From Dicyema japonicum (lineage: Eukaryota; Animalia; Dicyemida): a stretch of 53,971 bases of DNA. Shown in pieces: positions 1 through 47,328 of the stretch (position 1 is the stretch's first letter; each line of letters opens with the position of its first letter). Where the stretch lies: the NCBI GenBank assembly GCA_011109175.1, contig RDEW01000094.1, forward strand, positions 51,350-105,320. Direction: 5' to 3'. The position numbers and the translations under genes are program-made. The notes beneath the pieces are model-generated. The model did not search any database. It had not been told where the DNA came from and saw nothing but the letters and a program-made list of their open reading frames with translations.

Positions 1-2639
1 TTTTCTATATATTGATTCAATTTCTTGAAAATAATCCGTTCCATAATCTTCGATGTAGAACAGATAAGGCTTATAGGCCTATAACTAAGAGGATCTTTCC
101 TCGACTTTCCAGGTTTAGGGATCATCTTTACAATTGAGTGCTTCCATAGTGAAGGGGAATGTCCGAGCTTGAAACTTGCGTTATACATCTTTTGTAGAAC
201 AGATAGAAATTCATCGGATCCTTCTTTAAACATAGTCATCGGAATGCTATCAAATCCAGGAGCCTTGTTTTTGCACTCCCGTATAGCAGTCTTGACTTCT
301 GCCAAGGTGATTTCCTCTACCATACTATTCAGATCGTCTATGGAGTAATCCATAGAGCTAGATATATCTTCTGAGAATTTTTCAGATATAATACTGACTG
401 GGTCTACTCCCTGTATGTTTTCTAATTGTTTCCTGAATACTGACGGTACTCTGTCCAGGGGAATTGTTCTTCCATCTTGATCCGCCAGTACAATGTTCTT
501 TGCTCTCAAATTTTTGTTGGTCAGTCTGGAGTACAATTTCCAGAAGCAAGGATTCTTCCGGTGCACTTTCGAGGCTGCTTTCCTAACTTGGTTTTCGGAA
601 TACAACTTCCAGGCTCTTTGTATAACTTTTTGGATAGCATCGATATTATTTTTCAAAGTTATCCTGTCCCACATGTCCACACATCGTCTGTGTTTCGTCT
701 TCAGAGTATTCCTCTCGCGAATAAGACCCCGAATAGAGGGAGGGCAGGACTGATTCGTTTTCGGAAGGATTTTTGAGTAAATCTTCTTTGCATATAATCG
801 CAGATACATCGTAATAGTATTGGATAAATCTTGGTTGAAAGAATCCAACTCATTATGTGTAGAAAAGGAATAATTAATCTTCATTAACATACTCTTCGAT
901 AAATAATGACGATAATGTTCCCAGTCTACCGACGAGGTATCATAATACAGAAAAATGTCTTCAATAATATCCGGTTCCAGATTTATAGTCATCTCCATAG
1001 GGATATGGTCACTCCCTATATCCCAGAGTAACCTTGGCCTGTTTACATGGTCTAGTAGTTGTGGAGATACTAAGGCCAATCCCAGCATATCACCCCCATA
1101 GCATGAGAAATGGTTAGGTTCTTCGGACGTTAAGACTTCGACTCCAATTTCCCCGACCAAATCTGCCAGTAGTTGACCGTCCCTGTTGTTTCCATAACAT
1201 CCATAAGTCCTGTTTTTGGCGTTCAGATCTCCCACCAGGATCGACATTGGGTTTCTTTCGAAGAACTCGACAATTTTCACAGAGGACCGGGCCAAGTCCT
1301 TAGAATATAGCCCTCCCACGGTTATCCACGTTCCACCACATTGCACGTCGACAGACACGAATTCCGAATCGTCGGCCGATACAATGCAGTCGTTTCGAGT
1401 TTGCAATAGTTTATGAAAGAAGATTGAGGTTCCTGTTCCAGCAACTGCTCCATCTTTCCATGGAATGTCCACTGAGTCATATCCTTCCAGAATATAATGC
1501 CTTCCTTCTCGAATCTTCGTCTCGTTGACTACCAAGACATCTGCCTTGGCAGTCCTCATAAGTAGTGCTAGTTCATCATGCCTTTTCACCAAGGAGCGGG
1601 CATTCACCAGCACTAACTTTAGGATTCTTTTCAGATTTCTTTTTGGTGGCCCGGGCTCTCCATGGCCAGGTCCACCATTTCCCGTAAATCCACTCCCAAA
1701 GTAACACTAAGTTCTCTCAATCTTGTAATAATTTCATATAGTTCTTCTTTGATTCTTCCTGGTATTTTTCCTCTGGTTTGCCATGCCGATTTCTTTGGTA
1801 GATTAGCTGAAGACGGCTTGTTAACACTTGGACCAACAATTCTTTTTCGTGGTAGTGTCTCCACCTTGTCGTCTATGTCGTTCATAGGTTTCACATCTGC
1901 TTTTTGGATTTGGGGAATGAGCTTTCGCCTGGCCTCCACAAGCACAGGGCATCCTTCATACCTCGCATCGTGTTTGGCAGACCCACAATTGATGCATTTC
2001 CGTTCAGAATCCATATTTATAGTACATTTGGAGATATCGTGTTCTCCCGCGCAACGTAGACATCTTTGCTTTCCTGTGCACTGGTATGAGAAGTGACCTA
2101 TCTGCTGACATTTATAACAGATCGGCGGTCCTCTTCTCTTCCATTCGCAGGATATTTTGTTCACTCCAATGTAGAAACCACAACGTATTAACGATGTGGC
2201 TTCCGGTCTACTCTTAATCGTGGCCATCGCCATTGGCATGGGCCGCGATCCTTTGGACATTCGGGTCACTTTCGTAGTTGAAGGAGCCATTTCCTGTAGG
2301 TAGTCCAAGAGGTCGTCCTCCCTCACCCAGAACGGAAGGTTCCTCAGGACAATCTCAGATGGTTTGGCTGAGATTGCCCTAAAGTGGTGGTTGTCCAGAC
2401 CAAAGGGACAGGTCTCATTTATGGCCTCCATGTAGGTGGCCATGTGTGAGTTGTCTCGGAAGTCCAGACGGAAGGAGCCCGATCCTCTGTGGCTCATCCT
2501 CATGCATCCGTATTGGTCATAGAGGTATAGTGTGTTCGCAATCCTTATTGCACTGGTGGCGGAATTCACTGTTATCAGCACGGACAAGTTTTCTGTGGGA
2601 TTTGGTTCGTTTGATGGTTTATTCATAACTGAAGAGTCG
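1..2639 (-). mobile_element. Jockey/I-group-like LINE (family A), copy 1; 5'-truncated within ORF1, 3' part runs off the window
   Basis: Colinear with 13779-16417 at a constant offset of 13778 (no indels seen). Encodes gag-like ORF1 and the APE start of ORF2. Confidence 0.92.
1631..2626 (-). CDS. LINE ORF1 (gag-like, three CCHC zinc knuckles), N-terminally truncated
   Basis: CYKCQQIGHFSYQC, CLRCAGEHDISKC, CINCGSAKHDARYEGC; upstream IVLRNLP RRM-like segment. Confidence 0.9.
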   Translation of the reverse strand: MNKPSNEPNPTENLSVLITVNSATSAIRIANTLYLYDQYGCMRMSHRGSGSFRLDFRDNSHMATYMEAINETCPFGLDNHHFRAISAKPSEIVLRNLPFWVREDDLLDYLQEMAPSTTKVTRMSKGSRPMPMAMATIKSRPEATSLIRCGFYIGVNKISCEWKRRGPPICYKCQQIGHFSYQCTGKQRCLRCAGEHDISKCTINMDSERKCINCGSAKHDARYEGCPVLVEARRKLIPQIQKADVKPMNDIDDKVETLPRKRIVGPSVNKPSSANLPKKSAWQTRGKIPGRIKEELYEIITRLRELSVTLGVDLREMVDLAMESPGHQKEI

Positions 2640-2881: not shown

Positions 2882-5800
2882 TTTTTTTTTTTTTTTTTTA
2901 AACAAAAATTTATTAACAATAAAATATTATTATTAACTATGGGGGAGAGCGGCTGCTGACATCACGGAGTAAGCGTTTCCGCGAATAACTGCGATACCAA
3001 TTCTTTGCCTCAGCCAGACCGCTTCCCGCACGTCTTTCTTGCGGTGGGCCAATTTTCCCCCGATTTCCTTTAGGAAAGAGGCTGTAATACTTCCAGCCGC
3101 ACCAGACGTCTCGATTGCTACCGGTACAAAACGGTAGCGGTCTCCAATTTCGCCATATTTTTTAATCTTGATTTTTCGGCCAGATCGGCTGCTGATCCAG
3201 CAGACTGCGCCGAGCTGAGCATCATCGAGTTCGAGAAAGAATCCACAACAGTGCAGTCCCATACGAGCGATTTTCCCTCAGTGAACGGAAAGATAGTTAA
3301 CCCATCCGGTCTTTTCCCATCTCCGCGGTCCAATCCCACAGGTTCCAATACTGCCGGGAAGCCTGCCGCTTCAAGAGCTCGCAAGACAATGTTGTTCATA
3401 GCAGCATGGCGGGGTGCTCTGCCCGCACTCCTTTTGCACGAGAGCGGGTGCAGCCCTTTGGCATCGACGATCCCTCCACAGCGACATTGGTGTTCGACGC
3501 AAACATCAGCTCCCAGGCGTTGTGCGATTCCAATCCGAATACAGTCATCGTCCAATAGGGTCCCCAGGGAGGAAGACGGGAGTGCATCCAGCCACGCTCC
3601 GCTCCCATGGTTGGCGGCGGACACGAGGCATGCAAGACGATGCTGGTTGGCCTCAGACTTTAGCACGTCGAAGATATTCTTGGAGTAAATATCATCCCAG
3701 TCACGTTGCCTCGAAGGATCGTTCGGCATATCCAAACCAGTTTCACACCATTCGCAACGAGCTTCGTCGAAGACTTTTTCCCAAGAGAGTCCGGTTGTAA
3801 TACGTAGGATTTCTTGGACCAAAAGGCTTCCACTTGAGAGCGATGACACATATGCTGGATAGGCGATCTCCAGCGCCGACCTGAGACCCGTTCCTCCGAG
3901 GCGTGTAGGAAGCTTGCATTGGTTCCAACTCGGCGCATCAAACTGGATGTTTAGAAGTAATTCAGCTGATTTTCTCAATGTCCTATCCAGTGACAGGAGG
4001 ATGTCACGATGTTTGAAGCAGGGAGAACATCGGAGAGCATATAGGAGTTTGGGCAAGCCGATGCTATTCTTCAAAAGGAAGAACGCTGTATGACCATCGA
4101 GTAAGGAAAGTTTCTCCGTGACTCTGGAGAGTTCATCCTCTTTTGTTTGTAGATGGCTCCGCAGTTCCTTTTCGTCAAGTGGGCACCCAAGAAAGTATGT
4201 CCGCTCCCTGGGTACGACAGTAATTCCAGGTAATACCGAGTTGAAAGACTCGACCACGTTGATGAAATCACTCTCCGAGTATGTGATATTTATTAGCTCC
4301 GATTTCTTTATGTTTATCTCAAGTCCGAGGTTTCGTAGTGCTGGCACGGCATGTGACAGAACGTCGTGTACTTTTCTCCACGGCCCTCCAATTGTGGCGT
4401 CATCGAGATACCAAAGGTTAAGTTGTGTGTTTATAGAGCGGACAATTTCATCGATGGCCAGAGCGAAGAGTAGTGGACCAAGTGGGTCTCCTTGTTGAAC
4501 TCCGGTCTCCGAACAGATAATCTTGTCCCCGAAAACCAGTGAAGAATTTGATCCGTAAGCGAGGAAGACAAGTGGAATAAGTTCCGGGGCTCGTTTGCTT
4601 GTAGTTTCGAAAATTTGATCCCTCCTCAATGAATTGAAGGCATTGCAGATGTCCAGCTTGACCCCAATGTGTGGGTTTTGTTCGTCATTCTGTCCAAAAA
4701 ACACCTCGCAGCATGCACTGCCGCCTCGCATCCGTTCCTTACACCAACTCCCAGTTGGAGGGGGAAAATTCTTCAGATATTCTCGGAGAGACAATGCTGC
4801 ATGCAATTTTCGCTGTCAATCTTCTGAAATAGTTGCCGACTGCGATGGGGCGGACCCCACCTTCAGGTTTTTTGAAGGCCAATAAATGTGCACTGAAAAG
4901 GAGCTCCCTTGCGTGGGGAGGAATATCTCCGTTCAAAATACGCATAACCAGTTTTGTAATTGATTTGACAAGGTTGCAGCCAGCTTCTGCAGTAGCCTCC
5001 GCCGTAAGATCTTTGATGTGACCAGGCCGCAAGCCATCGATGCCTCCACTGCTACTCGCCGCAAAGGACGAAATGCCGCGTCGCACTTCGCCTTCGGTGA
5101 CGGTCATCCTTGACAAATTTCCCGGAAGCACGAATGGGCGGTAATCCTCCGGAGCACATGGATGTTTATGTCTAAGTAGTTCTAGCACCTCAGGTGTCGC
5201 AGCCATAACAGTTTTCGCTGGCGACGACGCGCAACGCCGCTCGGACGTCGCCTTCGAATAGTTTGCGGTTCACTCTCTCTTTAAGTTTTTCCGGGCCATT
5301 CAAATAAACAGAGGATTGGAATCAGAATGTCTTGATTTCTTGACTTCCGTCTTGGTGAGAGAATGCACATAGAAAACCTGGATGTTCTTCTTCATTTTTG
5401 AGGAAAGGGAGTTTCCAAGTGTCGTGCTTTCCTCTGTATTCCGTTGATCTCCCTTTGAGTCGATAAATGGAATTCCAAGGGCCATCGGAGCAAAACTGAG
5501 GAGTTTTAGCCAGGCCTCCAGGTCGTCGGACGTGAGAGCATTGTCAATTGCAGAGGCCAGACATGTAGCCGCGGGGATCCGGACGGGTCTTGGGATCCTG
5601 ATTGGGATCTTCCTGGCTTTCCTTAGATCCGACAAGAAGAGCAAGAGGTTGTCCATATTATTGAAGTCTAGAGGCTCGTTTGGTTCAACGTGCTCGTTTG
5701 GAATGGTCCTCTGGGTTTTCCAACCAGTTCCCATGCAGACACTGCAGTTCCAAAGGCAGAGCGAGCACGCAGCCCGCTGAGACATCTTTATGCATCCAAG

Positions 5801-5975
5801 GTGGAAAAAGTCACGGCAAGACGAGCAGAAAAGTCCATATTTGCGTGCATTGGCAAAACCGCATGTAGAGCATGTAGTGTCCAGTCTCTCGGGTGTAATG
5901 TGTGTTGATCCATTGTATGAACGACGCTCCATGATGATACAATTATTCACAACAAGACCACACGTTTTATTTCCT
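2882..5975 (-). mobile_element. CRE-like non-LTR retrotransposon (PHD + RT + restriction-like endonuclease), near full length, frameshifted
   Basis: ORFs 5300-5950, 4739-5206, 3118-4806 and 2933-3262 chain together. RT motifs GVRPIAVG, GVQQGDPLGP, WYLDD; CCHC (CRCG..HPLSC); RLE KRPDG..WDCT; oligo(A) tail at 2882-2899. Confidence 0.88.
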
Positions 5976-6034
5976 TTTAATTTCTTACTTAGCTAACTAA
6001 TATATTTTTGCGGTTTTACGTCGCAACGGCGTAT

Positions 6035-8801
6035 GAATAACTAAATTTTTTTTTCTCGTGGCGTCATGTGGTTCACCTTTTGTGGTGGCGCTCAGTGTAA
6101 TAATACACCAAAAAGAACCATTTGCTCTTCCCCATCCAGACTCTTTATGCCTGGATGGTATGCCTCAACTGGAAACTCGAGATGTTGTTTGTTCCCCTGG
6201 ATTCTATTGCTTTCTGGAGATATTGAACAAAACCCTGGACCAAAACCCCTTGTTATTATGCAACTCAATGCTAACGGAATAAAAACAAAGATTCTGGAGT
6301 TACGATCTTTATTAACGAAGCACAAGATTGACATCTGCCTTATCCAGGAGTCAAAACTTTCTACAAACAGTTCAACCCCACTTTTTCCTGGATACATCTC
6401 TATCAGAAAAGACCGCATTGGACGTGGTAGCGGCTTACTCACAATTATCAGAAACGGTCTATCTTCCACGATGTAAGCTTGCATGTGGATGATTTAATTT
6501 TACACGACAAGACCGCGGAACAAATTTCTATTGATCTTATTAATGGGTCAGAACATCTAATTCTAATCAACATTTACATTCCACCGCCGGGATCCTGTCC
6601 TAATAACTATGTTCCGAAGCTCGACAAACTACAAGAAATTCGAAATGTGTTACTATGTGGGGATTTCAATGACAAACATCCGCATTGGCTTAGTACTCAG
6701 TCGGCAGACAAGAGGGGGAGTCTCTCGAAAAAATGGTGATTCTAATCACCCGAATATGTTCACAAGGACACTTATCCGAAGAAATGACAACCCAACCTTC
6801 CCCGACATATCCATTGCTTCCCCTAGGAATGCCCTGAGCCGATTCAATAACTCGCTTAGAATTAAAGCAACCTTCAAGGTCTACAAGAAAGCTGACTGGT
6901 CGAATTTCAAGCTCTTCATTGACAATAAACTAAAACACTTTGATCCCACCTCATTTTGCTCCATCGACAAAGCAGTGGACCATCTAAACCATGTAATCCT
7001 TCAAGCCGAAAAGTTGTTTTTACCACGTGCAGTTTACAAATCCTACAAGCCTACTTTGGACTTTGAGACTCGTCTCCTCATCAAACAAAGAAACTCCCTG
7101 AAGATGAATCATCTGCAAACCTCATCTGATTTGCAAAATATAAAATGCTTAAATCAGAGAATTACAAAGCTCATCAGAGAAAAGAAAGATAGGGCGTGGA
7201 AGCGCCTATTATCATCTATTGGACATATGAAATCCACGAGTCTTTTATGGAAAACTATTCGTCAAATCAAGCTAAACTTATCAGATGAATCAGAATATTT
7301 TTCTGCTCAAATACTGTGCAAGCTAAGAGATCTTTTACGTGTGGACCTGACGGCATTCCGGTAATTTTGTTAAAACACCTTGGTAATGCTGCAATCAATT
7401 CGATTACGTCAATTTTTAATTTGTCTTCTAACATGAACGTCATCCCATGCAAATGGAAGAATTCACTTATAATACCATCCTTAAACCAGGAAAACCGAGA
7501 ACCTCACCTTCTTCCTTCCGTCCAATTTCATTAACGTGCGCATTATCGCGCCTAATGGAGAAACTCGTACTGTGGAAAATTAAACCCCATTTGCCCGACT
7601 GCCACTTTCAACATGGTTTAAAATGTGAGCGTTCAACTACGACACATTTGACTTCACTGTCTCAATTTATATCAGAAGGGTTTCAACGTACCGAAACGCA
7701 ATCTACGGACAATAATGGTTTTCCTGGATATCCAGAAGGCGTTCGATTCTGTCTCGAGAATATTTACTCACGAAGATGGTTTTTGACACCACCATTCAGT
7801 CCGATTTGAAAAGATGGATAGCCAATTTTCTCTCCGGAAGAAGAGGACGTGTCTGTATAGGCCACGCAAGATCGAGGTCCCGTCTCGTACCAAATGGCGT
7901 CCCTCAAGGATCGCCCCTCTCTCCGGCATTATTCAACTTGTTCCTCAACAATTTACCCTGCCCTGGAGGACTAGATTCAATGCTTCTCACTTATGCTGAC
8001 GATTTAATCATCGCTAGCAGGAACAAATACGTGGGTACAGCAAAATCAGAGCTTCAATCACATATTGACGGCCTGAAAGCCTGGTTGAAGTTGAATCGTC
8101 TCTCCGTATCCAGGGATAAATCAACTTTTACAATCTTCACCACGGACAGAAAAGAAAAACATACACTGGACTTGAACATTTTTGGAGACTCCTTACCACT
8201 ACAGATTCGTCCAACTATCGTGGGAGTGACATTTGACCCTTTGATGACATTTTCTCAACATGTGAAGAACGTTATGACAAAGGGTCTCAGGAAACTTAAT
8301 ATAATCAAACCGCTCTTGAAGTCCAAACCCTCACAGGAATGCGCCCTCGTCGCGTTCAATCAACTCCTAAAACCGACGATTGAGTACGCTTGTGCCTCAT
8401 GGGCCTATGGAGCTTCGATATCAAATTCACTCAAGATCAATACCCTAATTGGAAAACTAGCACGTCAAACGAATCTACCCCCCGATCTTTTCCCTCCAAT
8501 GCTTGACCACGCCGCAATCAAAAATAATGGCTCCGGCTTCATCTGTCTGTGTGGCCAAGAAACAAGTCGTATCATCGATTCAAGGCTAAAGGCTTCAAAT
8601 ACACGAAATTTGGGGAAAACTTTACTCCTCTTCAAACCCTAATGAAAGATGATCGTCGTCTATTCAGGAAAGCCGTGGGTACTCTGGAGGAACACAGGAA
8701 AAACTTCTCGATCCTGTTGAGGCGTACCGGGATCACTTAATTAGTTGGATTACTCCTTCTTTCTTGGTGTTCCCTTTTCGGGGTTATTAAATAAAATAAA
8801 T
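6035..8801 (+). mobile_element. APE-RT LINE with an N-terminal 2A-like peptide, frameshifted; 10-bp TSD
   Basis: QLNANG/IQESK/GDFN APE motifs; GVPQGSPLSP and YADD RT motifs; (ATAAA)n tail; TSD AACGGCGTAT at 6025-6034 and 8802-8811. Confidence 0.88.
6189..6242 (+). other. 2A-like ribosomal skipping motif ILLLSGDIEQNPG|P
   Basis: Exact D(V/I)ExNPGP consensus, in frame and directly upstream of the APE domain. Confidence 0.85.
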
Positions 8802-12677: not shown

Positions 12678-12756
12678 ACTTTTTCGTCCAAATCAAATCA
12701 AATCAAATCAAATTTATTCCAAAGTAAGTAAGGAGTCAATTAAAGGGATTTTAATC

Positions 12757-12781
12757 GTGTCCGCCTTTGCGGCCTGGACAC
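12757..12781 (-). other. 3' UTR stem-loop of family A LINE
   Basis: GTGTCC..GCC-GCAAA-GGC-GGACAC, about 40 nt upstream of the AATAAA and tail. Confidence 0.55.
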
Positions 12782-12816
12782 TTCACACGTATCCCATCTC
12801 CATTGTAGTCGTCCAT

Positions 12817-15469
12817 TTAGTACGTATTGAGAAGCTGGTTGCCCAACCTTACTTCGATATCTATTTTTACCGGCCTGACAAGGCTATTCTCTTCCTCGGA
12901 GAGGCTTTCATGTAATTTCCTCCCCAGAGATATTTTTATCGCCGCTCGCCTTGTTTTCTCCAGGCGAGCGAGAATCCTTTCTCTCGAGGGAGTATAATAC
13001 CATCCCTCGCATCCATATATCAGTCTTGGAGAATCACAGTTTGGAAGATATAGAGCATTGTATCGGCGTCCAGCATAAGTTTTCTGGAGCAGAACATCGC
13101 TTGAACGGCCTTCTTTCTCCGCTCCTCGATGTCCTTCCGGTACGATCCTCTTCCATCCACTGCAATCCCCAGGTATTTCAGGCTAGAGACTCTCGGTATC
13201 CGTAGCGTATACATCTCTCTCTGGTGTCGATCCAGCCTGCATATTCGCAAGTAACTGGATTTTTCTGTGGATAGTTTCATCCCTCTCCTATCGCACCATG
13301 TCCGAACTCTGTCGACAAAAGCCCCGATTCGTCGCTCAGAGATGTAGGCCTTCAGAGATGAGTCTAGGATTAAGATGTCATCCGCATAAATCATCAGCTT
13401 GGTCCTAACGTTTTGTGGAGAAGGAAAATCTTCCATAAATACGTTGAATAATAGAGGGCTTAGAATAGACCCCTGCGGCACTCCCTTTTAAACAATATAT
13501 CTTCGGAATATCTTCCACCAACCACCACGTTTGATATTCTCCCAGTCAACAGGTTCTTCAGCCATAGGAACATTTGCCTTGATATTTTTGATCGAACCAG
13601 TTGACAGAATAGGCCTCGTGCCATACACTGTCGAAAGCCTTAGATATGTCAAGGCAGACAAGGCTCAACTGGCTCCTCTTCTCAAAAGCATTTGCAATCT
13701 CATAATTTAGAGAGTAAATGCAATTACCACGATCTCCCTGGCCGAAAACCCCATTGGTAACACTGTAGAAAATTACTCTTTTCTATGTATTGATTCAATT
13801 TCTTGAAAATAATCCGTTCCATAATCTTCGATGTAGAACAGATAAGGCTTATAGGCCTATAACTAAGAGGATCTTTCCTCGACTTTCCAGGTTTAGGGAT
13901 CATCTTTACAATTGAGTGCTTCCATAGTGAAGGGGAATGTCCGAGCTTGAAACTTGCGTTATACATCTTTTGTAGAACAGACAGAAATTCATCGGATCCT
14001 TCTTTAAACATAGTCATCGGAATGCTATCAAAACCAGGAGCCTTGTTTTTGCACTCCCGTATAGCAGTCTTGACTTCTGCCAATGTGATTTCCTCTTCCA
14101 TACTATTCAGATCGTCTATGGAGTAATCCATAGAGCTAGATATATCTTCTGAGAATTTTTCAGATATAATACTGACTGGGTCTACTCCCTGTATGTTTTC
14201 TAATTGTTTCCTGAATACTGACGGTACTCTGTCCAGGGGAATTGTTCTTCCATCTTGATCCGCCAGTACAATGTTCTTTGCTCTCAAATTTTTGTTGGTC
14301 AGTCTGGAGTACAATTTCCAGAAGCAAGGATTCTTCCGGTGCACTTTCGAGGCTGCTTTCCTAACTTGGTTTTCGGAATACAACTTCCAGGCTCTTTGTA
14401 TAACTTTTTGGATAGCATCGATATTGTTTTTCAAAGTTATCCTGTCCCACATGTCCACACATCGTCTGTGTTTCGTCTTCAGAGTATTCCTCTCGCGAAT
14501 AAGACCCCGAATAGAGGGAGGGCAGGACTGATTCGTTTTCGGAAGGATTTTTGAGTAAATCTTCTTTGCATATAATCGCATATACATCGTAATAGTATTG
14601 GATAGATCTCGGTTGAAAGAATCCAACTCATTATGTGTAGAAAAGGAATAATTAATCTTCATTAACATACTCTTCGATAAATAATGACGATAATGTTCCC
14701 AGTCTACCGACGAGGTATCATAATACAGAAAAATGTCTTCAATAATATCCGGTTCAAGATTTATGGTCATCTCCATAGGGATATGGTCACTCCCTATATC
14801 CCAGAGTAACCTTGGCCTGTTTACATGGTCTAGTAGTTGTGGAGATACTAAGGCCAATCCCAGCATATCACCCCCGTAGTATGAGAAGTGATTAGGTTCT
14901 TCGGTCGTTAAGACTTCGACTCCAATTTCCCCGACCAAATCTGCTAGTAGTTGACCGTCCCTGTTGTTTCCATAGCATCCATAGGTCCTGTTCTTGGCGT
15001 TCAAATCTCCCACAAGGATCGACATTGGGTTTCTTTCGAAGAACTCGACAATTTTCACAGAGGACCGGGCCAAGTCCTTAGAATATAGCCCTCCCACGGT
15101 TATCCACGTTCCACCACATTGCACGTCGACAGACACGAATTCCGAATCGTCGGCCGATATAATGCAGTCGTTTCGAGTTTGCAATAGTTTATGAAAGAAG
15201 ATTGAGGTTCCTGTTCCAGCAACTGCTCCATCTTTCCATGGAATGTCCACTGAGTCATATCCTTCCAGAATATAATGCCTTCCTTCTCGAATCTTCGTCT
15301 CGTTGACTACCAAGACATCTGCCTTGGCAGTCCTCATAAGTAGTGCTAGTTCATCATGCCTTTTCACCAAGGAGCGGGCATTCACCAGCACTAACTTTAG
15401 GATTCTTTTCAGATTTCTTTTTGGTGGCCCGGGCTCTCCATGGCCAGGTCCACCATTTCCCGTAAATCC
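12817..15469 (-). CDS. LINE ORF2 (APE + RT), no upstream ATG, broken by a few single-base frameshifts (~13720, ~13500, ~13020)
   Basis: VNARSL, VNETK, GDLNAK, GSDHIP (APE); YRPISL, QWGFRPG, DISKAFD, PQGSILSP, YADD (RT); last frame ends with TAA at 12817. Confidence 0.85.
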
Positions 15470-16566
15470 ACTCCCAAAGTAACACTAAGTTCTCTCAATC
15501 TTGTAATAATTTCATATAGTTCTTCTTTGATTCTTCCTGGTATTTTCCCTCTGGTTTGCCATGCCGGTTTCTTTGGTAGATTATCTGCAGACGGCTTGTT
15601 AACACTTGGACCAACAGTTCTTTTTCGTGGTAGCGTCTCAACCTTGTTGTCTATGTCGTTCGTAGGTTTCACATCTGCTTTTTGGATTTGAGGAATGAGC
15701 TTTCGCCTGGCCTCCACAAGCACAGGGCATCCTTCATACCTCGCACCGTGTTTGGCAGACCCACAATTGATACATTTCCGTTCAGAATCCAAAATTATAG
15801 TACATTTGGAAATATCGTGTTCTCCCGCGCAACGTAGACATCTTTGCTTTCCTGTGCACTGGTATGAGAAGTGGCCTATATGCTGACATTTATAACAGAT
15901 CGGCGGTCCTCTTCTCTTCCACTCGCAGGATATTTTGTTCACTCCAATATAGAAACCACAACGTATTAACGATGTGGCTTCTGGTCTACTCTTAATCGTG
16001 GCCATCGCCATTGGCATGGGCCGCGATCCTTTGGACATTCGGGTCACTTTCGTAGTTGAGGGAGCCATTTCCTGTAGGTAGTCCAAGAGGTCGTCCTCCC
16101 TCACCCAGAACGGAAGGTTCCTCAGGACAATCTCAGATGGTTTGGCTGAGATTGCCCTAAAGTGGTGGTTGTCCAGACCAAAGGGACAGGTCTCATTTAT
16201 GGCCTCCATGTAGGTGGCCATGTGTGAGTTGTCTCGGAAGTCCAGACGGAAGGAGCCCGGTCCTCTGTGGCTCATCCTCATGCATCCGTGTTGGTCATAG
16301 AGGTATAGTGTGTTCGCAATCCTTATTGCACTGGTGGCGGAATTCACTGTTATCAGCACGGACAAGTTTTCTGTGGGATTTGGTTCGTTTGATGCTTTAT
16401 TCATAACTGAAGAGTCGTACTTCGTTGGTTCATTGGCAGGTTTAGGAGGTTCTGCCTTTTGCGGCGTCTTGTTTTCCAGAGCAAATGACTGAGCAGTAGT
16501 AGCCCCCGGGGGACGAGAGGAGTTTCCATTTTTCGTTGAAACTTTCGCCTTTCTTGAAACAACCAT
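15409..16566 (-). CDS. LINE ORF1, gag-like with three CCHC knuckles (first ATG at 16566)
   Basis: Open frame; the track start at 16620 is a TTG lying outside the TSD. Confidence 0.9.
   Translation of the reverse strand: MVVSRKAKVSTKNGNSSRPPGATTAQSFALENKTPQKAEPPKPANEPTKYDSSVMNKASNEPNPTENLSVLITVNSATSAIRIANTLYLYDQHGCMRMSHRGPGSFRLDFRDNSHMATYMEAINETCPFGLDNHHFRAISAKPSEIVLRNLPFWVREDDLLDYLQEMAPSTTKVTRMSKGSRPMPMAMATIKSRPEATSLIRCGFYIGVNKISCEWKRRGPPICYKCQHIGHFSYQCTGKQRCLRCAGEHDISKCTIILDSERKCINCGSAKHGARYEGCPVLVEARRKLIPQIQKADVKPTNDIDNKVETLPRKRTVGPSVNKPSADNLPKKPAWQTRGKIPGRIKEELYEIITRLRELSVTLGVDLREMVDLAMESPGHQKEI
15423..15469 (-). promoter_or_regulatory. Candidate -1 programmed ribosomal frameshift signal (identical at 1645-1691)
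   Basis: G_GAU_UUA in ORF1 phase, 8-nt spacer, hairpin GGUGG(A)CCUGG / CCGGGCCACC; the -1 frame is open into the APE. Confidence 0.7.
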
Positions 16567-16610
16567 GGCAACCAAAATTCGGAAAAATTCCTTATTACTT
16601 TTTCGTCCAA

Positions 16611-17590
16611 GACAAGACAAATTTTATTTTCTAACAAACCCCAAAACTAATTACTGTAAAGAAACCAAAACCTGAACCAAAACTAATAAAGTGGGTTTGT
16701 ATTCATCGTGTAGGGTCATTTTATGAGACACCACATGTCTCTACTTCGTTTGGACCCCAAAAATTACATCACATTTTCCATAAGTGATGTAATAATTTTT
16801 CTATCTTTCTGACTTTCAGGTCGTAATCCTCTTCGATATTAGATTTTAAGTCCAGTCCATATGCCAATTTAATCGCAAATCTTCTGGACTTTTCCAATTT
16901 TTTGACAAAGACATCACTTTCTTTTGTTCTAAACCATCCTTGATAACCATATATCAAGAATGGTTCAACACACGCCGAATACACAAAAAGAAAAGTTTCT
17001 GGCTCCAAATGAAATCGAATTAAAGATTTCAACATTCCTGTAGCTTTCTTTCTTCGTGTTTTAATATGTTCCTTGAAAGATCCTCTTCGGTCTATCAACA
17101 ATCCGAGATACTTCAATGTTTCAGAGATTTTTATATCCCCAGTATTCACACATTGATTAATATTTTTTCTTTTACTTGCAATCCAAGTGACTGTTGTTTT
17201 TTCCCTCGATAGAGTTAACCCATTGTTTTGGCACCACTTTCCAATCTTAGTAATATGGGATTCCACTCTTTTCCATGAAATTTGTTTATTCATGCTTGAA
17301 TCAAGCACAAGAATGTCATCAGCATAAATAATCATTTGACTATTTACGCTCTCTGTTTTTGGCAAATCTCTCATTACGCAATTGAAGAGTAGCGGGCTGA
17401 GAATTGAACCCTGTGGAACTCCTCTTCGCAATTCAATTTTCTTTGAAATTAAATTTCCAACACGTATATATGACTTTCTTTTTGAAAGAAAGTTTTCTAT
17501 CCATAATAACGCAGTTTTCCAAATTTTCTGCTTTTGACAACGTATCACAAGTCCAAAGTGCCAAACACTGTCAAACGCAATTTCTATATT
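16611..17590 (-). mobile_element. 5'-truncated related LINE (family B): RT C-terminal half, 3' UTR, AATAAA, (TTGTC)2 tail
   Basis: AFDSVWH, GVPQGSILSP, YADD, KYLG; stop at 16769; 3' UTR similar to 11346-11490. Confidence 0.85.
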
Positions 17591-20500
17591 AAATTTAATT
17601 ATATAAATCAATGATTTATTGTCTTTCTTTAAAATGCATTTTATCATTAATTTTTTAAAAAATATATTTCTCATTAATAAAAAATAAAAAATATCCCTTT
17701 TTCCTTTTATGGGATCATGATTTTCCCTTTTCCTTTTGTGGGTGATCATTCTTTCAAAGTTTCCGCCAACTGACTCTTCAGCCAATTCGGCAATTTCTAT
17801 ATTAAATTTAATTATATAAATCAATGATTTATTGTCTTTTTTAAAATGCATTTTATCATTAATTTCTTAAAAAATATTTTCTCATTAATAAAAATATAAA
17901 AAATATCCCTTTTTCCTTTTATGGGATCATGATTTTCCCTTTTCCTTTTGTGGGTGATCATTCTTTCAAATCCGCCAACTGACTCTTCAGCCAATTCGGC
18001 AATTTCTATATTAAATTTAATCATATAAATCAATGATTTATTGTTTTGTTTAAAATTCATTTTATCATTAATTTCTTAAAAAATATTTTCTCATTAATAA
18101 AAATATAAAAAATATCCCTTTTTCCTTTTATGGGATCATGATTTTCCCTTTTCCTTTTGTGGGTGATCATTCTTTCAAATTACTGCCAACTGACTCTTCA
18201 GCCAATTCGGCAATTTCTATATTAAATTTAATTATATAAATCAATGATTTATTGTTTTGTTTAAAATTTATTTTATCATTAATTTCTTAAAAAATATTTT
18301 CTCATTAATAAAAATTAAAAAATATCCCTTTTTCCTTTTATGGGATCATGATTTTCCCTTTTCCTTTTGTGGGTGATCATTCTTTCAATTACTGCCAACT
18401 GACTCTTCAGCCAATTCGGCAATTTCTATATTAAATTTAATTATATAAATCAATGATTTATTGTCTTTCTTTAAAATGCTCATTTTATCATTAATTTCTT
18501 AAAAAATATTTTCTCATTAATAAAAAATAAAAAATATCCCTTTTTCCTTTTATGGGATCATGATTTTCCCTTTTCCTTTTGTGGGTGATCATTCTTTCAA
18601 GTTTCCGCCAACTGACTCTTCAGCCAATTCGGCAATTTCTATATTAAATTTAATTATATAAATCAATGATTTATTGTCTTTCTTTAAAATGCATTTTATC
18701 ATTAATTTCTAAAAAATATTTTCTCATTAATAAAAATATAAAAAATATCCCTTTTTCCTTTTATGGGATCATGATTTTCCCTTTTCCTTTTGTGGGTGAT
18801 CATTCTTTCAATCCGCCAACTGACTCTTCATCCAATTCGGCAATTTCTATATTAAATTTAATTATATAAATCAATGATTTATTGTTTTGTTTAAAATTTA
18901 TTTTATCATTAATTTCTTAAAAAATAATTTCTCATCAAAAAAATAAAAAATATCCCTTTTTCCTTTTATGGGATCATGATTTTCCCTTTTCCTTTTGTGG
19001 GTGATCATTCTTTCACGATTACTGCCAACTGACTCTTCATCCAATTCGGCAATTTCTATATCAAATTTAATTATATAAATCAATGATTTATTGGTTTTGT
19101 TTAAAATTTATTATCATTAATTTCTTAAAAAATATTTTCTCATTAATAAAAATATAAAAAATATCCCTTTTTCCTTTTATGGGATCATGATTTTCCCTTT
19201 TCCTTTTGTGGGTGATCATTCTTTCAAATTCCGCCAACTGACTCTTCAGCCAATTCGGCAATTTCTATATTAAATTTAATTATAAATCAATGATTTATTG
19301 TTTTGTTTAAAATTTATTATCATTAATTTCTTAAAAAATATTTTCTCATTAATAAAAATATAAAAAATATCCCTTTTTCCTTTTATGGGATCATGATGTT
19401 CCCTTTTCCTTTTGTGGGTGATCATTCTTTCAAATTACTGCCAACTGACTCTTCAGCCAATTCGGCAATTTCTATATTAAATTTAATTATATAAATCAAT
19501 GATTTATTGGTTTTGTTTAAAATTTATTATCATTAATTTCTTAAAAAATATTTTCATTAATAAAAATATAAAAAGTATCCCTTTTTCCTTTTATGGGATC
19601 ATGATTTTCACTTTTCCTTTTTTGGCGAATCATTCTTTCAATCTTTCGCCAACTGACTCTTCATCCAATTCTGCAATTTCTATATTAAATTTAATTATAT
19701 AATCAATGATTTATTGCTTTTGTTTAAAATTTATTTTATCATTTATTTCTTAAAAAATTATTTCTCATAAATAAAAATAAAAAATATCCCTTTTTCCTTT
19801 TATGGGATCATGATTTTCCCTTTTCCTTTTGTGGGTGATCATTCTTTTACACATTACTGCCAACTGACTCTTCATCCAATTCGGCAATTTCTATATTAAA
19901 TTTAATTATATAAATCAATGATTTATTGTCTTTCTTTAAATGCATTTTATCATTAATTTCTTAAAAAATATATTCTCATTAATAAAAAATAAAAAATATC
20001 CCTTTTTCCTTTTATGGGATCGTGATTTTCCCTTTTCCTTTTGTGGGTGATCATTCTTTCAAATTACTGCCAACTGACTCTTCAGCCAATTCGGCAATTT
20101 CTATATTAAATTTAATTATATAAATCAATGATTTATTGCTTTTGTTTAATATTTATTATCATTTATTTCTTAAAAAATAATTTCTCATTAATAAAAATAT
20201 AAAAAATATCCCTTTTTCCTTTTATGGGATCATGATTTTCCCTTTTCCTTTTGTGGGTGATCATTCTTTCAAAGTTTCCGCCAACTGACTCTTCAGCCAA
20301 TTCGGCAATTTCTATATTAAATTTAATTATAAAATCAATGATTTATTGCTTTTGTTTAAAATTTATTATCATTAATTTCTTAAAAAATAATTTCTCATTA
20401 ATAAAAATATAAAAAGTATCCCTTTTTCCTTTTATGGGATCATGATTTTCCCTTTTCCTTTTGTGGGTGATCATTCTTTTAAATTACTGCCAACTGACTC

Positions 20501-21400
20501 TTCAGCAAATTCCGCAATTTCTATATCAAATTTAATTATATAAATCAATGATTTATTGCTTTTGTTTAAAATTTATTATCATTAATTTCTTAAAAAATAA
20601 TTTCTCATTAATAAAAATATAAAAAAATCCCTTTTTCCTTTTATGAGATCATGATTTTCCCTTTTCCTGTTGTGGGTGATCATTCTTTTAATTACTGCCA
20701 AATGACTCTTCATCCAATTTCGCAATTTCTATATCAAATTTAATTATAAATCAATGATTTATTGGTTTTGTTTAAAATTTATTATCATTAATTTCTTAAA
20801 AAATATTTTCTCATTAATAAAAATATAAAAAATATCCCTTTTTCCTTTTATGGGATCATGATTTTCCCTTTTCCTTTTGTGGGTGATCATTCTTTCAATC
20901 CTGCCAACTGACTCTTCAGCCAATTCGGCAATTTCTATATTAAATTTAATTATTAAATCAATGATTTATTGTCTTTCTTTAAAATGCATTTTATCATTAA
21001 TTTCTTAAAAAATATTTCTCATTAATAAAAAATAAAAAATATCCCTTTTTCCTTTTATGGGATCATGATTTTCCCTTTTCCTTTTGTGGGTGATCATTCT
21101 TTCAACATTACTGCCAACTGACTCTTCAGCCAATTCGGCAATTTCTATATTAAATTTAATTATTTAAATCAATGATTTATTGTCTTTTTAAAATGCATTT
21201 TATCATTAATATCTTAAAAAATATTTTCTCATTAATAAAAAATAAAAAATATCCCCTTTTTCCTTTTATGGGATCATGATCTTTTTCCTTTATTGGTGTC
21301 ATTTCTTTCAAATCACCACCAATGACTCTTCAGCCAATTTGCAATTTTTCTTATTATATTTTAATTATATAAATCAATAATTAAGTTGTCTGATTTATTA
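17577..21400 (+). repeat. Satellite array, ~210-bp monomer, ~18 copies
   Basis: GCAATTT anchor recurs at 17577, 17790, 17999, 18210 ... 21138, 21341 (periods 203-213). Confidence 0.97.
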
Positions 21401-22399
21401 AATTACTCACAATTTTTTGCTTTTCTGAACACGTTTTCATCTTCTTCAATTGGTTCCGTTCTGGAACAGGACACCCTCTTAATTTGGATTTATTAGTCTC
21501 GGCATCGATCTGATTGCAATATCTTCCAGATTATTTCAGAATTCAAAAAATACCATCATGACCACACGTATATGGATTTTTAATTTTATCTCATTCTTGA
21601 GTAATCTCATCGTGACTAATGAGTTCTATACATGAGGTTATTATAGGTACCAAATTACGAATTCGACGGGAGGAGTTTTTGAAATGTCTATAGAAACGTA
21701 AACGTAATACTTCATTAGCTTACTTTGAGCGGGGGGAGATTCTGTTTCATTTGATATGCATAATTTGATTTGAGGAATAGTATTCCATAGTCTCGTGGGA
21801 TTAATTTCTCCAATTGATGATAAGATAGGTTCCTAAAGTTTCCTTTCTTAGCTTTTGTGTCGAATGTCTAATGGAAATGAGAAGAGGTGGATCGCACAAT
21901 TTTTGATCATCAGAATTTTATTTTTATGGTGGCAACCCTAAATTTTTATCGTAATTTCCCGCGTGCTAGATTATTTTATGTTATAGTTTTAAAAATTGTG
22001 GAAAGATTATTTGGAATATGAAATTCAATGATTCCTTGCGAAATAAATGCCCTGAACATCCAACGAGTAAGGAAATATAAGCTACTTTAGAAAATTCATA
22101 CTACACGTGGAGTTCACATGAAGGAGTCAACAAATCGAATATGAAATCAGAAAACGACATTTTACTTTGAAGTTTGTAATTTTCGAATCCTTCAAAAGTT
22201 TTAATTTCTTTTTATTGATGATATACCAGGTTTTTGCTTTTGGTAAAAATGAATGATTTCAGATAAATTTTATTGATCTAAAAATAAGTCTGCAATTGAA
22301 TTTTGAAGGATTCATGACAATTGAATCAAAATTTATTAACGTCTAATTTTAGCCTGGAAATGGCCGACTTAATTAATTCCTTACTTTTTTTCTTTTCTT

Positions 22400-22610
22400 T
22401 TTTTCTCATTAAAAAAATATCCCTTTTTCCTTTTATGGGATCCTGATACCCCCTTTTTCCTTTATTGGGACATCAATCTTTCCACCACACAACCAACTGA
22501 CTCTTCAGCCAATCGGGCAATTACTTGTGTTTATTATATTTTAATTATATAGATCAACAATTAAGGTGTCTGATTATTAAATTACTCACAAATTTGTGCT
22601 TGGCTAAATA
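22400..22610 (+). repeat. Solo diverged satellite monomer sharing the array's 3' flank
   Basis: Matches 21240-21470, including aattactcacaa and gttcc..ctggaacagga. Confidence 0.8.
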
Positions 22611-22849
22611 AGTTACTATCATCTTCTATTGTTCCGCTCTGGAACAGGAGTGTATATCCATTCGTCTCTGGATCAACCTATGACAACCTCATCCGTGCTT
22701 TTGTGGATCTGTTGTGGACTGCAAAGAGCTTCTGAGTGCTTTTATTTCTTTGTTTACCTTGAGCTTGTTCTACAAAACTATATAGTTACGTACATACAGT
22801 CGGAAATCGGAGTTCTCTTTCGATATCTTGTACTTGATGGCTACTCTCA

Positions 22850-25229: not shown

Positions 25230-28200
25230 TAATTTTTTTTTATTATAAGGAAAAAGAATAGTTAATTTTAATTTTAATTATTCAGCTGTTGGGAGATGCA
25301 TAAGCTATTCCCACGAACAACAGCCAACGAGAGCCTCTCTTTGAGTCATCTCGTCTCACGAAGATCACCAGTTTTGTCGGATAGTAGTTTTCCAAGATGA
25401 TTCAGGAACTTCAGCGTTTTAGGGCCAAAGTTCCCCGAAGTTTCAATCGCGACAGGTGCGAAAATGTACCTGTCGCTGATATCCGAATACTTAGCATTTT
25501 TCATTTCCTCTGCTTGAGAAGAAGGTCTGCCCGGTGAATTATTTTTTTTGCTTGGGGCGAAAGAGGCAGACACAGGTCACATCCCATACAAGGTTTCGCC
25601 CTCGCTCGAAAGGAAAGGAGGTCATGCCGTCAGGGCGTCTTCCGTTGTCAAATAGACCAGTCGGTTCGATCCGGCAACGGAATCCAGCCGATTCTAATGC
25701 CCTCTTAATGATGCCGTTCATTGCCGAATGTCGAAAAGATCTGCCAATTCCGCTCCGGCATGAGAGGAGGTGGAGACCCAGTTCGTCCGATAGACAGCCA
25801 CATTTGCACTTCGATTTGGTGCAAACAGGCAATCCGAGGTGTAGACATACAGCTGTACGAAGGGAGTCATCATCCAACAATCCACCAACTTCTTGACATG
25901 GGTAAACCCCAAGCCAAGATCCATCAACCGCCTCCCTCGAATTTTGGAAACAGTCCAGGCGATGTCCAGAGAGCCGGCTGACTAGGTTGGATGCCAGAGC
26001 ATTCCATCTATGGATCATCCAAGACGATTGTTGGTCTGGATTACGCGGCTCGCTAAGCCCTTCACTCCGCCTCACGTCCATGTATTCAACCAAGTCATTG
26101 GACAGTTTCCGAGATGGAAGCTTTGAAAGAATTGAGTCCACTTGGTTTTTGCATGAAAGTTTTGAGGCAAAATACGCCGGGCCAGCAATTTTGGCAGGGA
26201 GTAGTAAGACCGATTCCACCCAATGATATCGGTAATTGAGTCTGTATCCATCCAGGGGTGTCAAGGGAAACATTAAGTACGAATTCAGTACATCTTTTGA
26301 GGCAATCAGAGTATTCCATTAAAAGGGAATCACACTTATAACATGGTGCAGTCCTTAGTAAATTGTTTAATCTTGGAATGGACAAGCAGTTTCTCAATAG
26401 GAAGAGGGCAATATGGTTGTCAACATGCCGCAAACGGGTCTCAAAAGTACCGAGCTCTATTGTCTTTTCTTTAAACACGTCCACAATTCGGTCTTCGAAT
26501 ATAGGAGAACCAAGGAACAGAGACTCCCCAACTGGAACCGATGCATAATTTTCGAGAGTGTATTTAAACTGGTCATTGTAGAAAGTAGTCAGATCGGGAC
26601 TCAAATTGATCTTGATTAATTCACATTTGGCCTTGTTGACAGAAAGGCCAATCGCTTCGAATTCTGATATCAAACGACGACGTCCTCCAAAACTGTATCT
26701 GGATGTCCACCAATGATTCCGTCATCCAAATACCATAAATTTAAAGGTGATTTTAAGCATGCGGCTACTCCCTGGATCCCCAAAGCAAAGAGAAGAGGTC
26801 CAAGTGGGTCGCCTTGTTGAACACCAGTTCGTGATTTAATGATGGCATCGTGGAAAACCAATGATGATGGCTTAGAATATGAAAGCGAACAATCTCCCAA
26901 ATATGTGGTAAATTTTTTTGGCATAACTCCAATAAATGATCTCTCCTTATGGAATTAAATGCGTTCTTAAGATCTACTTTGCAGACAACAACGTCCTCTT
27001 TGCATTCGGACGACGACGTGAAAAAACTCCTCACTGCGTGGACACAAGCCTCTGCACCGCCACGAACTCCAACGCCAATCTGTATTGGACTGAAACTAGG
27101 AAGTAATCTTTGAACCCCAGAAAAGCAAGCGACTTTAGCTGCAAGTCTCCTAAACACGTTTTCAATAGCAATCGGTCTGACACCGCCGTCAGGCTTTCGG
27201 AGAGCAACAAGATTAGCAGAAAATAACATATCTCGACCGAAAAGAGACAAACATCCAGAAAGAATTTTGTTGATCAGTTCGCAAATAACATTCGAAAGAT
27301 CCTTTCCGACAGATCCCATCATTGGAGCTGTGAGATCACGTAGGTGACCGGGTCTCAAGCCATCGATACCACCTCCACTACTAGGACGAAATGAACGCAG
27401 GGAGGTGATTATATCTTCGTTAGAGGCGAGCAATTGTTCCTCGTGGAAAGGTTTAATAGTTCTCAAGTCTTCGGGGGATCCGGGTGTTTTTCTCGTAAAG
27501 ACAAGAGCGTTTCAGGGATGTTTTTAAGTGTCCCAGGATCACAAACTAATAGCCGTACAGCACCACGATATCGTTTTCCATAAGTTTCATCCTGATTAGT
27601 TTCTTTATTAAGCGAAGTTCCTCCGTTTTCGGACGCTTTGAACTCCGGGGTGCAATTTGAGTTGATTTTAAAGCAGTAAGTGACATTTTATGTTCATTTA
27701 GAAACAGTCTAACTCTCTTTTTGATATTCGTTGCGAGAGAAGTGGATGCTTCCGTTGGTCTTCTGATCCCAAGAGTGAGTGACGGGAAAAGGAAAAATTT
27801 GACCCATTCCGAAGAAACGGCGTCAGGCTTCAAAACATCCTTGATGGTGGAGATCAGAGCCTCGGCAACAGCAGTTCTCGCACCTTTGGGAATCTTCACA
27901 GGAATGGTCACGTCCGAGCGCGTTCGAGAGATCAGTTTCAGAGCTTCATCAGGATCTGCTACGAGAGGTCAAACGGTTCAATGCAAGCAGCAGATGAAAG
28001 GCATGGTTGGCAGTTCCATTTTGTCATATTGATAAGAGCCTTCTTGGACACTCCTACGCAAGACCTGTGATATCATCTTGAACAGGCTGCACAAGCGATC
28101 ATCCTTTTTCTCATATTAGTTACGTTGCACTTTTCACATGGATAGGTGTTTTCCTTCCTTTCTTCATTAGTCTTCATTGTTGTGTCTGTATTTTCGTAAC

Positions 28201-38160: not shown

Positions 38161-38185
38161 TATTAATACAAATATAAATAATGAA

Positions 38186-40632: not shown

Positions 40633-40766
40633 TCGTAACTACCACTATTATGTTATTATTTTTAAATATTAATTTTACTTTATTTCAAAAAAATAAAATG
40701 ATTTTGCTGAAATTACGTTTCAAACGATTTAGATCACATATAATTAAATTAATCAAGAACAAACCT

Positions 40767-47304: not shown

Positions 47305-47328
47305 TTCATTATTTATATTGTATTAATA

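Follow-up and report, generated by a model that had tools for sequence, protein, structure and literature searches.

How LINEs translate their second open reading frame is an acknowledged open question (PMC3894237, PMC5009743), and the worked-out cases use either reinitiation, as in SART1 and L1, or 2A skipping. A -1 programmed ribosomal frameshift (-1 PRF) is well known and has already been asserted for the Dictyostelium elements TRE5-A and TRE3-A, for which a review, in the part available to us, gives a -1 frameshift as required for ORF2 (PMC5911963); the kind of mechanism considered here is thus not new. According to an excerpt of PMC5009743, insect flaviviruses and umbra-, diantho- and mesoniviruses accept G_GA at X_XX. 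Our literature search found no published dissection of a -1 frameshift signal in a LINE. The pro-pol shift site of MMTV is G_GAU_UUA, the heptamer that is the subject of this report.

This heptamer lies in a LINE of Dicyema japonicum, two copies of which occur in the window, i.e., the whole stretch of 53,971 nucleotides that was analysed (contig RDEW01000094.1). The best reading of its ORF1/ORF2 junction, with a probability of roughly 0.65, is a -1 programmed frameshift that would give an ORF1-APE-RT fusion, because ORF2 is in the -1 frame, a stop lies upstream, no AUG precedes the APE motif and the heptamer is unchanged in diverged relatives.

The element and its ORF1/ORF2 junction

The features of the element are collected in Table 1. 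Copy 2 is flanked by a 14-bp target-site duplication (16610-16597 and 12691-12678; 2 matches vs. 0 expected), its AATAAA near 12718 is followed by a 3′ tail of short (TTTGA)n repeats, and a self-comparison of the window revealed no long terminal repeat, as is characteristic of APE-type LINEs. The coding content agrees with this class. ORF1 is predicted from domain matches to be a CCHC-type nucleic-acid-binding protein (its own zf-CCHC match, E 0.0036, is below the curated cut-off, and its relatives carry PRE_C2HC and CCHC), and ORF2 matches PF14529 (E 3e-9), PF03372 and, in the 3′ piece, PF00078 (E 8e-17), i.e., an APE endonuclease followed by a reverse transcriptase. As assembled, ORF2 of copy 2 is interrupted by stops and frame breaks beginning at 13724. 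The nearest ORF2 matches are only 23-32% identical, and the element may belong to the Jockey / I group of LINEs. Copy 1 differs from copy 2 at 47 of 2639 nt, which, together with the intact target-site duplication, indicates that the family is young and multi-copy and that its ORF2 was made recently. A second family in the window, distant and decayed, lacks both an AUG and the G_GAU_UUA heptamer.

Table 1. Coordinates within the window of the LINE copies and of the features at the ORF1/ORF2 junction
Feature	Position	Strand	Remark
LINE copy 2, whole insertion including the 14-bp target-site duplication	12678..16610	minus	
LINE copy 1, extending beyond the window and lacking the 5′ end of ORF1	1..2639	minus	98.2% identical to copy 2
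ORF1, 385 aa, three zinc-knuckle-like motifs (PRE_C2HC/CCHC-type ORF1), ends TGA	15409..16566	minus	
ORF2, 5′ portion (APE, linker and beginning of RT), in the -1 frame relative to ORF1	13724..15484	minus	
TAG stop of the -1 frame, upstream of the slippery site	15485..15487	minus	
Slippery heptamer G_GAU_UUA, ORF1 phase	15463..15469	minus	
Spacer, 8 nt	15455..15462	minus	
Predicted stimulatory stem A, 10 bp, bulged A, 11-nt loop	15423..15454	minus	
CUGA: CUG in ORF2 frame overlapping the ORF1 stop	15409..15412	minus	UUGA, AUGA or AUAA in relatives
Predicted hairpin B, start of APE coding, downstream of the ORF1 stop	15341..15393	minus	
Predicted hairpin C, 12 bp, four-base loop	15305..15332	minus	

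The preliminary description of this locus had placed ORF2 in the -1 frame with an overlap of about 75 nt after a TAG and its first ATG downstream of the endonuclease motif VNARSL, and both observations were borne out: the overlap is 76 nt, the TAG stands five codons before the heptamer, and the first ATG (15337) is codon 50. The -1 frame comprises 581 open codons, encoding APE and the start of RT, without a start of its own. The coordinates given earlier for the heptamer, the 8-nt spacer and the 10-bp stem also hold, on the minus strand. The heptamer, GGATTTA in the DNA, conforms to X_XXY_YYZ as the accepted G_GA variant rather than with three identical bases, and it is one of two in-phase slippery-type heptamers in the 386 ORF1 codons, the only one to open a long -1 frame (581 codons vs. 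11).

Stem A, whose arms are 15454-15444 and 15432-15423, begins at a distance from the heptamer within the 5-9 nt usual for a 3′ stimulatory structure, as predicted by folding. Its minimum free energy is -18.1 kcal/mol (z -2.07, a value reached by 7 of 200 shuffles), and the pair probabilities are 0.85-1.0 for eight of the nine pairs printed and 0.63 for the innermost. Taken alone the stem is unexceptional, since by z-score its best 60-nt window comes 19th among the 264 windows of the element, and the heptamer alone recurs in 442 of 2000 dinucleotide shuffles. Their combination, however, is beyond chance, since heptamer and stem occur jointly in 5 of 2000 dinucleotide shuffles and 1 of 5000 ORF1-synonymous resamplings. 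A search of Rfam gave 8 matches, all below the gathering score, and hence no family match. Hairpins B and C are stronger than stem A (z -3.4 to -4.6; all three together -5.2), and ORF1 itself contains several stronger hairpins (z to -6.4). Pairing of the stem A loop with 15376-15367 as a local pseudoknot ranked only 8th (-10.2) and is not supported. Rejected were a 2A-like reading of GEPGP, as the D(V/I)ExNPGP motif is absent by eye, and transcriptional slippage, the longest homopolymer in the overlap being five A.

Conservation of the cassette among relatives

The earlier argument for a signal rested in part on the identity of the cassette in the two copies. The 47-nt cassette is indeed identical in copy 1 (1691-1645, with the heptamer at 1691-1685 and the stem at 1676-1645), and the ORF1 proteins do differ at about a dozen residues (14 of 336), as had been said. 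This identity is nevertheless weak evidence for a frameshift signal because the copies differ at so few positions: its chance probability at the overall divergence is 0.43, although the junction does lie inside the longest invariant run, of 386 nt.

Read contigs of family members, of which 894 were aligned, support a frameshift better than the two-copy comparison. They come from four runs and at most two samples; three of the runs represent one sample, possibly the source of the window itself. In one lineage of nine contigs, read by hand, all 11 letters over 15471-15461 are identical, whereas 12 of the 19 flanking letters differ; the Ser, Leu, Gly and Arg codons are all synonymously changed (4/4), and the Val-Asp-Leu codons are not (0/3). 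Conservation of the heptamer among diverged relatives was found, at the nucleotide level, in this lineage read directly and in alignment borders at 15470-15474. In 4 of the 32 pieces listed, one of them from a second study, the similarity extends over stem and heptamer and breaks off at 15470-15471, leaving 42-261 nt upstream without alignment, and 7 of the 24 loose-end rows listed begin at 15456-15474; among the contig rows listed, conservation thus starts at the 5′ edge of the heptamer. The spacer varies among relatives in its last letters and keeps its length in the gapless pieces that were listed. No substitution in stem A appears among the variant rows listed (40 of 153); a 1-nt deletion at 15428 in its 3′ arm is present in three runs, in a single contig of each. 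The heptamer has a predicted partner in the free RNA (15416-15411), and common variants at 15413 and 15402 break this pairing and its outer helix, so RNA pairing does not explain the conservation of the heptamer.

The surroundings of the heptamer are more variable. At the position of the TAG, three further lineages, read by hand in loose ends, carry TAA, TGA or TAG, and a fourth shows no stop in the 30 nt seen. The codon over the ORF1 stop is CUG, UUG (17 X1 contigs), AUG or AUA, and there is therefore no fixed AUG; the ATG at 15337 is changed in 20 X1 contigs. In wider searches, no close relatives were found in viral contigs or, with ORF2 alone as query, in metagenomes, and a search with the ORF1 alignment yielded just 35 loci, all of them distant. 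No long fused ORF1-ORF2 protein occurred among 2092 candidates, which is weak evidence; possible fusions were flagged in 7 of 150 ORF1 matches, but the four that were inspected appear to be gene models merged over gaps and were not counted.

A frameshift weighed against other routes to ORF2

In the proposed frameshift, ribosomes translating ORF1 would pause at predicted stem A, 8 nt beyond G_GAU_UUA, and a fraction of them would slip back one base into ORF2, the Asp and Leu tRNAs presumably slipping in tandem from GAU_UUA to GGA_UUU. The product would join about 368 ORF1 residues to about 900 ORF2 residues at LGVDL/TGNGG or LGVDF/TGNGG; these transframe peptides had been anticipated, except that the R in one version offered (RTGNGG) is wrong. 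The ratio of fusion to free ORF1p would be low and fixed, and the efficiency could be low because G_GAU_UUA has a P-site mismatch. Such a fusion would tie the enzyme to its own RNA-binding protein.

The principal alternative, which we regard as unlikely though by some way the most credible of the rivals, is termination-coupled reinitiation. Ribosomes that have terminated at the ORF1 UGA (15411-15409) would begin again at the CUG that overlaps it (in relatives, UUG or AUG) and make a free ORF2p starting immediately upstream of the APE domain, with help from the downstream hairpins in the manner of SART1 or from upstream stem A in the manner of HvV190S. The CUG is nine codons upstream of the Val of VNARSL, in the place expected for an ORF2 start; an NUG over the ORF1 stop is an automatic consequence of UGA in that frame. 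In a more distant lineage, whose contigs are less than 80% identical over the cassette, an in-frame AUGA stands at this place in two of four consensus rows, and an ATG lies within 16 nt of the ORF1 stop at 12 of 15 distant LINE junctions. Nine of these 15 junctions are in the -1 frame, and an in-phase heptamer is present in none of the six with a stop-proximal ATG and in two of the three without, those two being kin. Stem A is separated from the UGA by 11 nt. In the two strong downstream hairpins, the common variants at 15344 and 15321 leave the affected pairs intact as G-U, whereas a variant at 15330 disrupts a hairpin C pair unless compensated. A UGGGA at 15476-15472 resembles the 18S-complementary TURBS motif, but it is changed in the relatives visible among the read contigs. 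According to excerpts of PMC10275272 and PMC5972666, SART1 requires downstream structure and HvV190S upstream structure, and near-cognate TURBS restarts reach up to ~45%; L1 ORF2 tolerates AUG loss, as cited in an excerpt of PMC1965478. However, reinitiation predicts neither the invariant GTG GAT TTA among changed synonymous sites nor a conserved tract that opens at the 5′ boundary of the heptamer, with stem A 8 nt further on. The putative start codon, moreover, has C, U or A as its first base.

It is very improbable that the signal is incidental, with the region conserved for protein or RNA packaging and ORF2 made via internal entry or a subgenomic RNA, or no longer made. The stronger hairpins inside ORF1, the frequency of the heptamer alone in shuffles and the broken downstream part of copy 2 would fit such a reading, but the joint chance of heptamer and stem is at most 0.0025, a start at the first ATG would lose the first APE motif, that ATG is polymorphic, and the family appears young and multi-copy with an ORF2 recently made. 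Still less credible is a short intron in the overlap whose removal would join ORF1 to ORF2 in frame. Eight GT-AG stretches of length 3n+2 are possible on paper, and one donor is at 15471, where conservation begins; however, the donors are not of the GTA/GTR type, and four of the eight acceptors are GAG. Reverse transcription of a spliced RNA would be expected to leave spliced copies in the genome, but the four joints listed among the 894 contigs, which show presence rather than absence, match none of these stretches.

The Gag-Pol-like fusion by -1 frameshift put forward in the preliminary description thus stands as the best-supported, still conditional reading; that account had overlooked the CUGA, hairpins B and C, the lineage with AUGA and the precedent of TRE5-A and TRE3-A. 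A broader proposal, which we offer tentatively and at somewhat less than even odds, is that one LINE lineage has a complete retrovirus-type -1 signal and that an AUGA stop-restart is retained by a sister lineage of this organism, so that LINEs would switch between the mechanisms and ORF2p would be covalently tied to ORF1p, like Gag-Pol. If the frameshift is real, a non-LTR element would have a defined -1 PRF signal, cis preference could be explained simply by an ORF1-ORF2 fusion, and an ORF2 without an AUG in a repeat library should not be assumed to be dead. The 60-nt frameshift cassette and the putative stop-restart signal lie within 110 nt and are separately mutable.

Comparison with described systems

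TRE5-A and TRE3-A are likewise APE-type non-LTR elements with two overlapping ORFs; the part of review PMC5911963 available to us gives no slippery site, stimulator or measurement for them, whereas in the Dicyema LINE a heptamer, a spacer and a stem are laid out. The CCHC-type ORF1 is a further difference. In luteo- and dianthoviruses, the stem loop has a long-distance partner. For the Dicyema loop, in contrast, no such partner was found at the 3′ end of the element, the best duplex being -14.1 vs. a shuffled mean of -13.2, with 31% of 200 shuffled loops pairing as well.

The signal itself resembles those of viruses with a G_GA-type X_XXY_YYZ, i.e., pea enation mosaic umbravirus (G_GAU_UUU), dianthoviruses, insect-specific flaviviruses and mesoniviruses, which, in an excerpt of PMC5009743, share the 8-nt spacer, a 3′ bulged stem and the fusion of a structural-protein ORF to a polymerase ORF; unlike these, it sits in a non-LTR retrotransposon. 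Two other cases in excerpts of PMC5009743 and PMC5405496 are less alike: Drosophila HeT-A is a non-LTR element said to frameshift, but within its gag gene and with no RT, and for Paramecium LINE groups 1-2 a +1 shift or reinitiation has been suggested, unlike the -1 shift proposed here.

SART1 of Bombyx mori, with its UAAUG stop-restart, and the victorivirus HvV190S, with its upstream pseudoknot, likewise have, as far as excerpts describe them, a -1-frame ORF2 and a start-like codon overlapping the ORF1 stop, and the Dicyema LINE has predicted RNA structure on both sides of that stop, hairpins B and C corresponding to the downstream structure of SART1. In the near family, however, the overlapping codon is CUG (both copies) or UUG rather than the AUG of SART1, AUGA being confined to part of the more distant lineage, and a conserved in-phase heptamer lies upstream, correctly spaced.

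The LINE junction and its surroundings

The window is a repeat-rich part of a eukaryotic genome and holds two copies of a LINE (table). Copy 2 is flanked by a target-site duplication of 14 bp (2 matches vs. 0 expected) and has a 3′ terminus of short tandem repeats; its ORF2, encoding APE and RT, is disrupted from 13724 onward. The three nearest single-domain relatives of ORF1 are from Octopus sinensis (31–36% identity). The host gene in the inverted duplication encodes WD40 repeats and, at the C-terminus, a RING/zinc-ribbon domain; it is presumably WDR24/Sea2-like and looks strongly diverged, with interruptions that are either very short introns or indels of the assembly.

Features of the window
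Feature	Position	Strand	Remarks
LINE copy 2, cassette-bearing	16610–12678	minus	target-site duplication at both ends
ORF1, 385 aa, zinc-knuckle motifs	16566–15409	minus	likeness to PRE_C2HC/CCHC-type ORF1 proteins
TAG closing the −1 frame	15487–15485	minus	
Slippery heptamer G_GAU_UUA	15469–15463	minus	ORF1 phase
Stem A, predicted	15454–15423	minus	
Predicted ORF1-internal hairpins	16250–15980	minus	60-nt windows 16175, 16250, 16010; z −6.4, −6.1, −5.7
LINE copy 1	1–2639	minus	98.2% identity with copy 2
AT-rich repeat, 82 bp	2653–2734, 42499–42580		copies 93.9% alike; adjoins site where copy 1 loses ORF1 5′ end
RT elements	3118–5992, 25539–27511	minus	C-terminal zinc motif, RPDG endonuclease-like motif; PHD finger upstream in one; taken to be CRE-like
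Decayed distant LINE family	12310–12100, 11810–11590	minus	two pieces
AT-rich tandem satellite	17577–21404		unit ~210 bp, copies ~92% alike; also 42021–42320, 43732–44433, 22372–22650
DDE_3 transposase fragment	33288–33551	minus	PF13358, E 1e-7
Inverted duplication, 7 kb	33955–41057 / 44437–51530		94.6%; includes LINE piece and host gene

ORF1 and ORF2 overlap by 76 nt, and the first ATG of ORF2 is codon 50. The heptamer is followed by an 8-nt spacer and a predicted 10-bp bulged stem (stem A), and all junction elements listed in the preliminary description were found in the sequence. ORF1 contains two in-phase slippery-type heptamers, and a long −1 frame lies open beyond G_GAU_UUA only. Stem A by itself is moderate (z −2.07; rank 19 of 264 windows) and is predicted to be stable in all contexts folded. 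A slippery heptamer alone is frequent in shuffles (442/2000), while heptamer and stem together occurred in 5 of 2000 shuffles and 1 of 5000 resamplings of ORF1 codons, nulls that used a heptamer set of our own definition and a −17 kcal/mol threshold picked after the site was seen. The cassette is indeed identical in both copies, as first described, but this is weak evidence, since 47 nt would be identical by chance with a probability of 0.43; the longest invariant run, 386 nt, contains the junction. The hairpins within ORF1 are predicted to be very strong and exceed those of the junction; an Rfam search gave nothing above threshold.

Conservation and distant junctions

Five runs from one organism and two studies contain the stretch. 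Four were aligned at 80% likeness, yielding 894 contigs from at most two samples, one perhaps the window's own source; the contig results below draw on the rows listed, which number 40 of 153 for variants, 24 of 177 for loose ends and 32 of 898 for pieces. Among these, a loose-end consensus of nine contigs spans the heptamer with 15471–15461 identical and 12 of 19 other letters changed, in one comparison made by hand against the window; nearby Ser, Leu, Gly and Arg codons are synonymously changed in 4/4 cases, Val-Asp-Leu in 0/3. Four listed pieces, one from the second study, match through stem and heptamer and end at 15470–15471, with 42–261 nt unaligned upstream, and 7 of the 24 listed loose ends start at 15456–15474. 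In run X1, summed contig depth, which is not copy number, is ~90,000 over the stem vs. ~3,000–5,000 over upstream ORF1, and points the same way. Three further lineages have a stop closing the −1 frame at the codon used in the window (TAA, TGA, TAG), which leaves the overlap as the one place of entry into ORF2; the first ATG of ORF2 is altered in 20 X1 contigs. Counting against the frameshift signal, a 1-base deletion in stem A turns up in three runs, in a single contig each. Free-RNA folding predicts the heptamer paired to the stop region, plus an outer helix; common variants at 15413 and 15402 disrupt these pairs, and RNA pairing thus fails to account for heptamer conservation. One second-study contig omits 34 nt of ORF1 (15488–15523) just upstream of the cassette, with ends that are not GT-AG, and matches 15440–15488 with one difference.

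A survey covered 35 distant loci, 23 of them with APE downstream. Eight were dropped, for a stop within the ORF1 match (L004, L007, L012, L013, L020) or as broken or ambiguous (L021, L034, L035); the 15 kept include several kin. In 12 of these 15 the ORF1 stop has an ATG no more than 16 nt away, so AUG coupling is the norm for this LINE type. Among the nine −1-frame junctions, in-phase heptamers occur in 0/6 with a stop-near ATG and 2/3 without. The two bearers, metagenome LINEs that are kin, have them shortly before the ORF1 stop (L003:616–622, C_CCU_UUU; L006:946–952, U_CCU_UUU) with weak downstream folds (z −1.2, −1.7), and with ORF2 in the −1 frame are a candidate second frameshifting family. 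In the decayed family within the window, the ORF2 head is similar (GQPPKK...INARSL) and AUG is absent; the hairpin is weak (z −0.75), the position corresponding to the heptamer lacks GGATTTA, and A_AAA_AAG lies ahead of TAG in the +1 frame.

Frameshifting or restart at the ORF1 stop

We consider −1 frameshifting from ORF1 into ORF2, as originally proposed, still the most likely mechanism (probability about 0.65). A fraction of ribosomes on ORF1 would pause at stem A, slip from GAU_UUA to GGA_UUU and resume at ACG in ORF2, making an ORF1–ORF2 fusion of ~1,280 residues; the others would terminate at UGA 17 codons on. Frames, stops, the lack of an AUG, heptamer, spacing and conservation among the listed contigs are visible in the sequences; the stems are predicted, and slippage, product and product ratio are inferred.

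The original proposal overlooked a serious, though less probable, rival with its signal 50 nt from the frameshift site, namely stop-restart, in which ORF2 is begun at a start-like codon overlapping the ORF1 stop. A CUG in the ORF2 frame does overlap it (CUGA, 15412–15409), 11 nt past stem A, and the two hairpins predicted downstream of the stop are stronger than stem A (all three together, z −5.2). A more distant lineage (contigs below 80% likeness upstream of 15393; four consensus rows listed, agreement 0.69–1.0) has in-frame AUGA in two rows; the others show AUAA and, in a single contig, out-of-frame AUGA. However, UGA in this frame relation automatically yields NUG and the first base varies (UUGA in 17 X1 contigs), so that in the near family the overlap is poor evidence of a start, and restart leaves the invariant heptamer unexplained. 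Frameshifting and restart need not exclude each other. Eight GT-AG stretches could, on paper, bridge the frames as a short intron, but none is among the four joints listed for the 894 contigs. Long-range pairing and a local pseudoknot of the stem loop were unsupported by pairing analysis.

Relation to known recoding systems

The cassette is a clean candidate for retrovirus-style frameshifting that lends itself to direct testing. The MMTV pro-pol shift site is likewise G_GAU_UUA, though a literature search on this point brought no confirmation. In the portions of the literature consulted, several groups of viruses are said to accept G_GA as the first triplet and HeT-A to frameshift inside gag (both PMC5009743), a review describes −1 frameshifting as required in Dictyostelium TRE5-A and TRE3-A (PMC5911963), and possible +1 shifts are mentioned for Paramecium LINEs (PMC5405496). 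Titles and abstract openings, in literature mostly without subscription papers, gave no tested −1 signal in a LINE. APE-type LINEs with 2A peptides are also described (PMC3894237); in the window, a 2A-like motif, LLLSGDIEQNPGP (~6200–6270, plus strand), directly precedes the APE start QLNANGI of another LINE. Together with the proposed −1 frameshift, this motif would give two recoding strategies among the window's LINEs. Restart-assisting structure, in the accounts consulted, lies downstream in SART1 and upstream in HvV190S (PMC10275272, PMC5972666); the start-like codon on the ORF1 stop, with its predicted structure downstream, has the SART1 layout, and with stem A upstream that of HvV190S.
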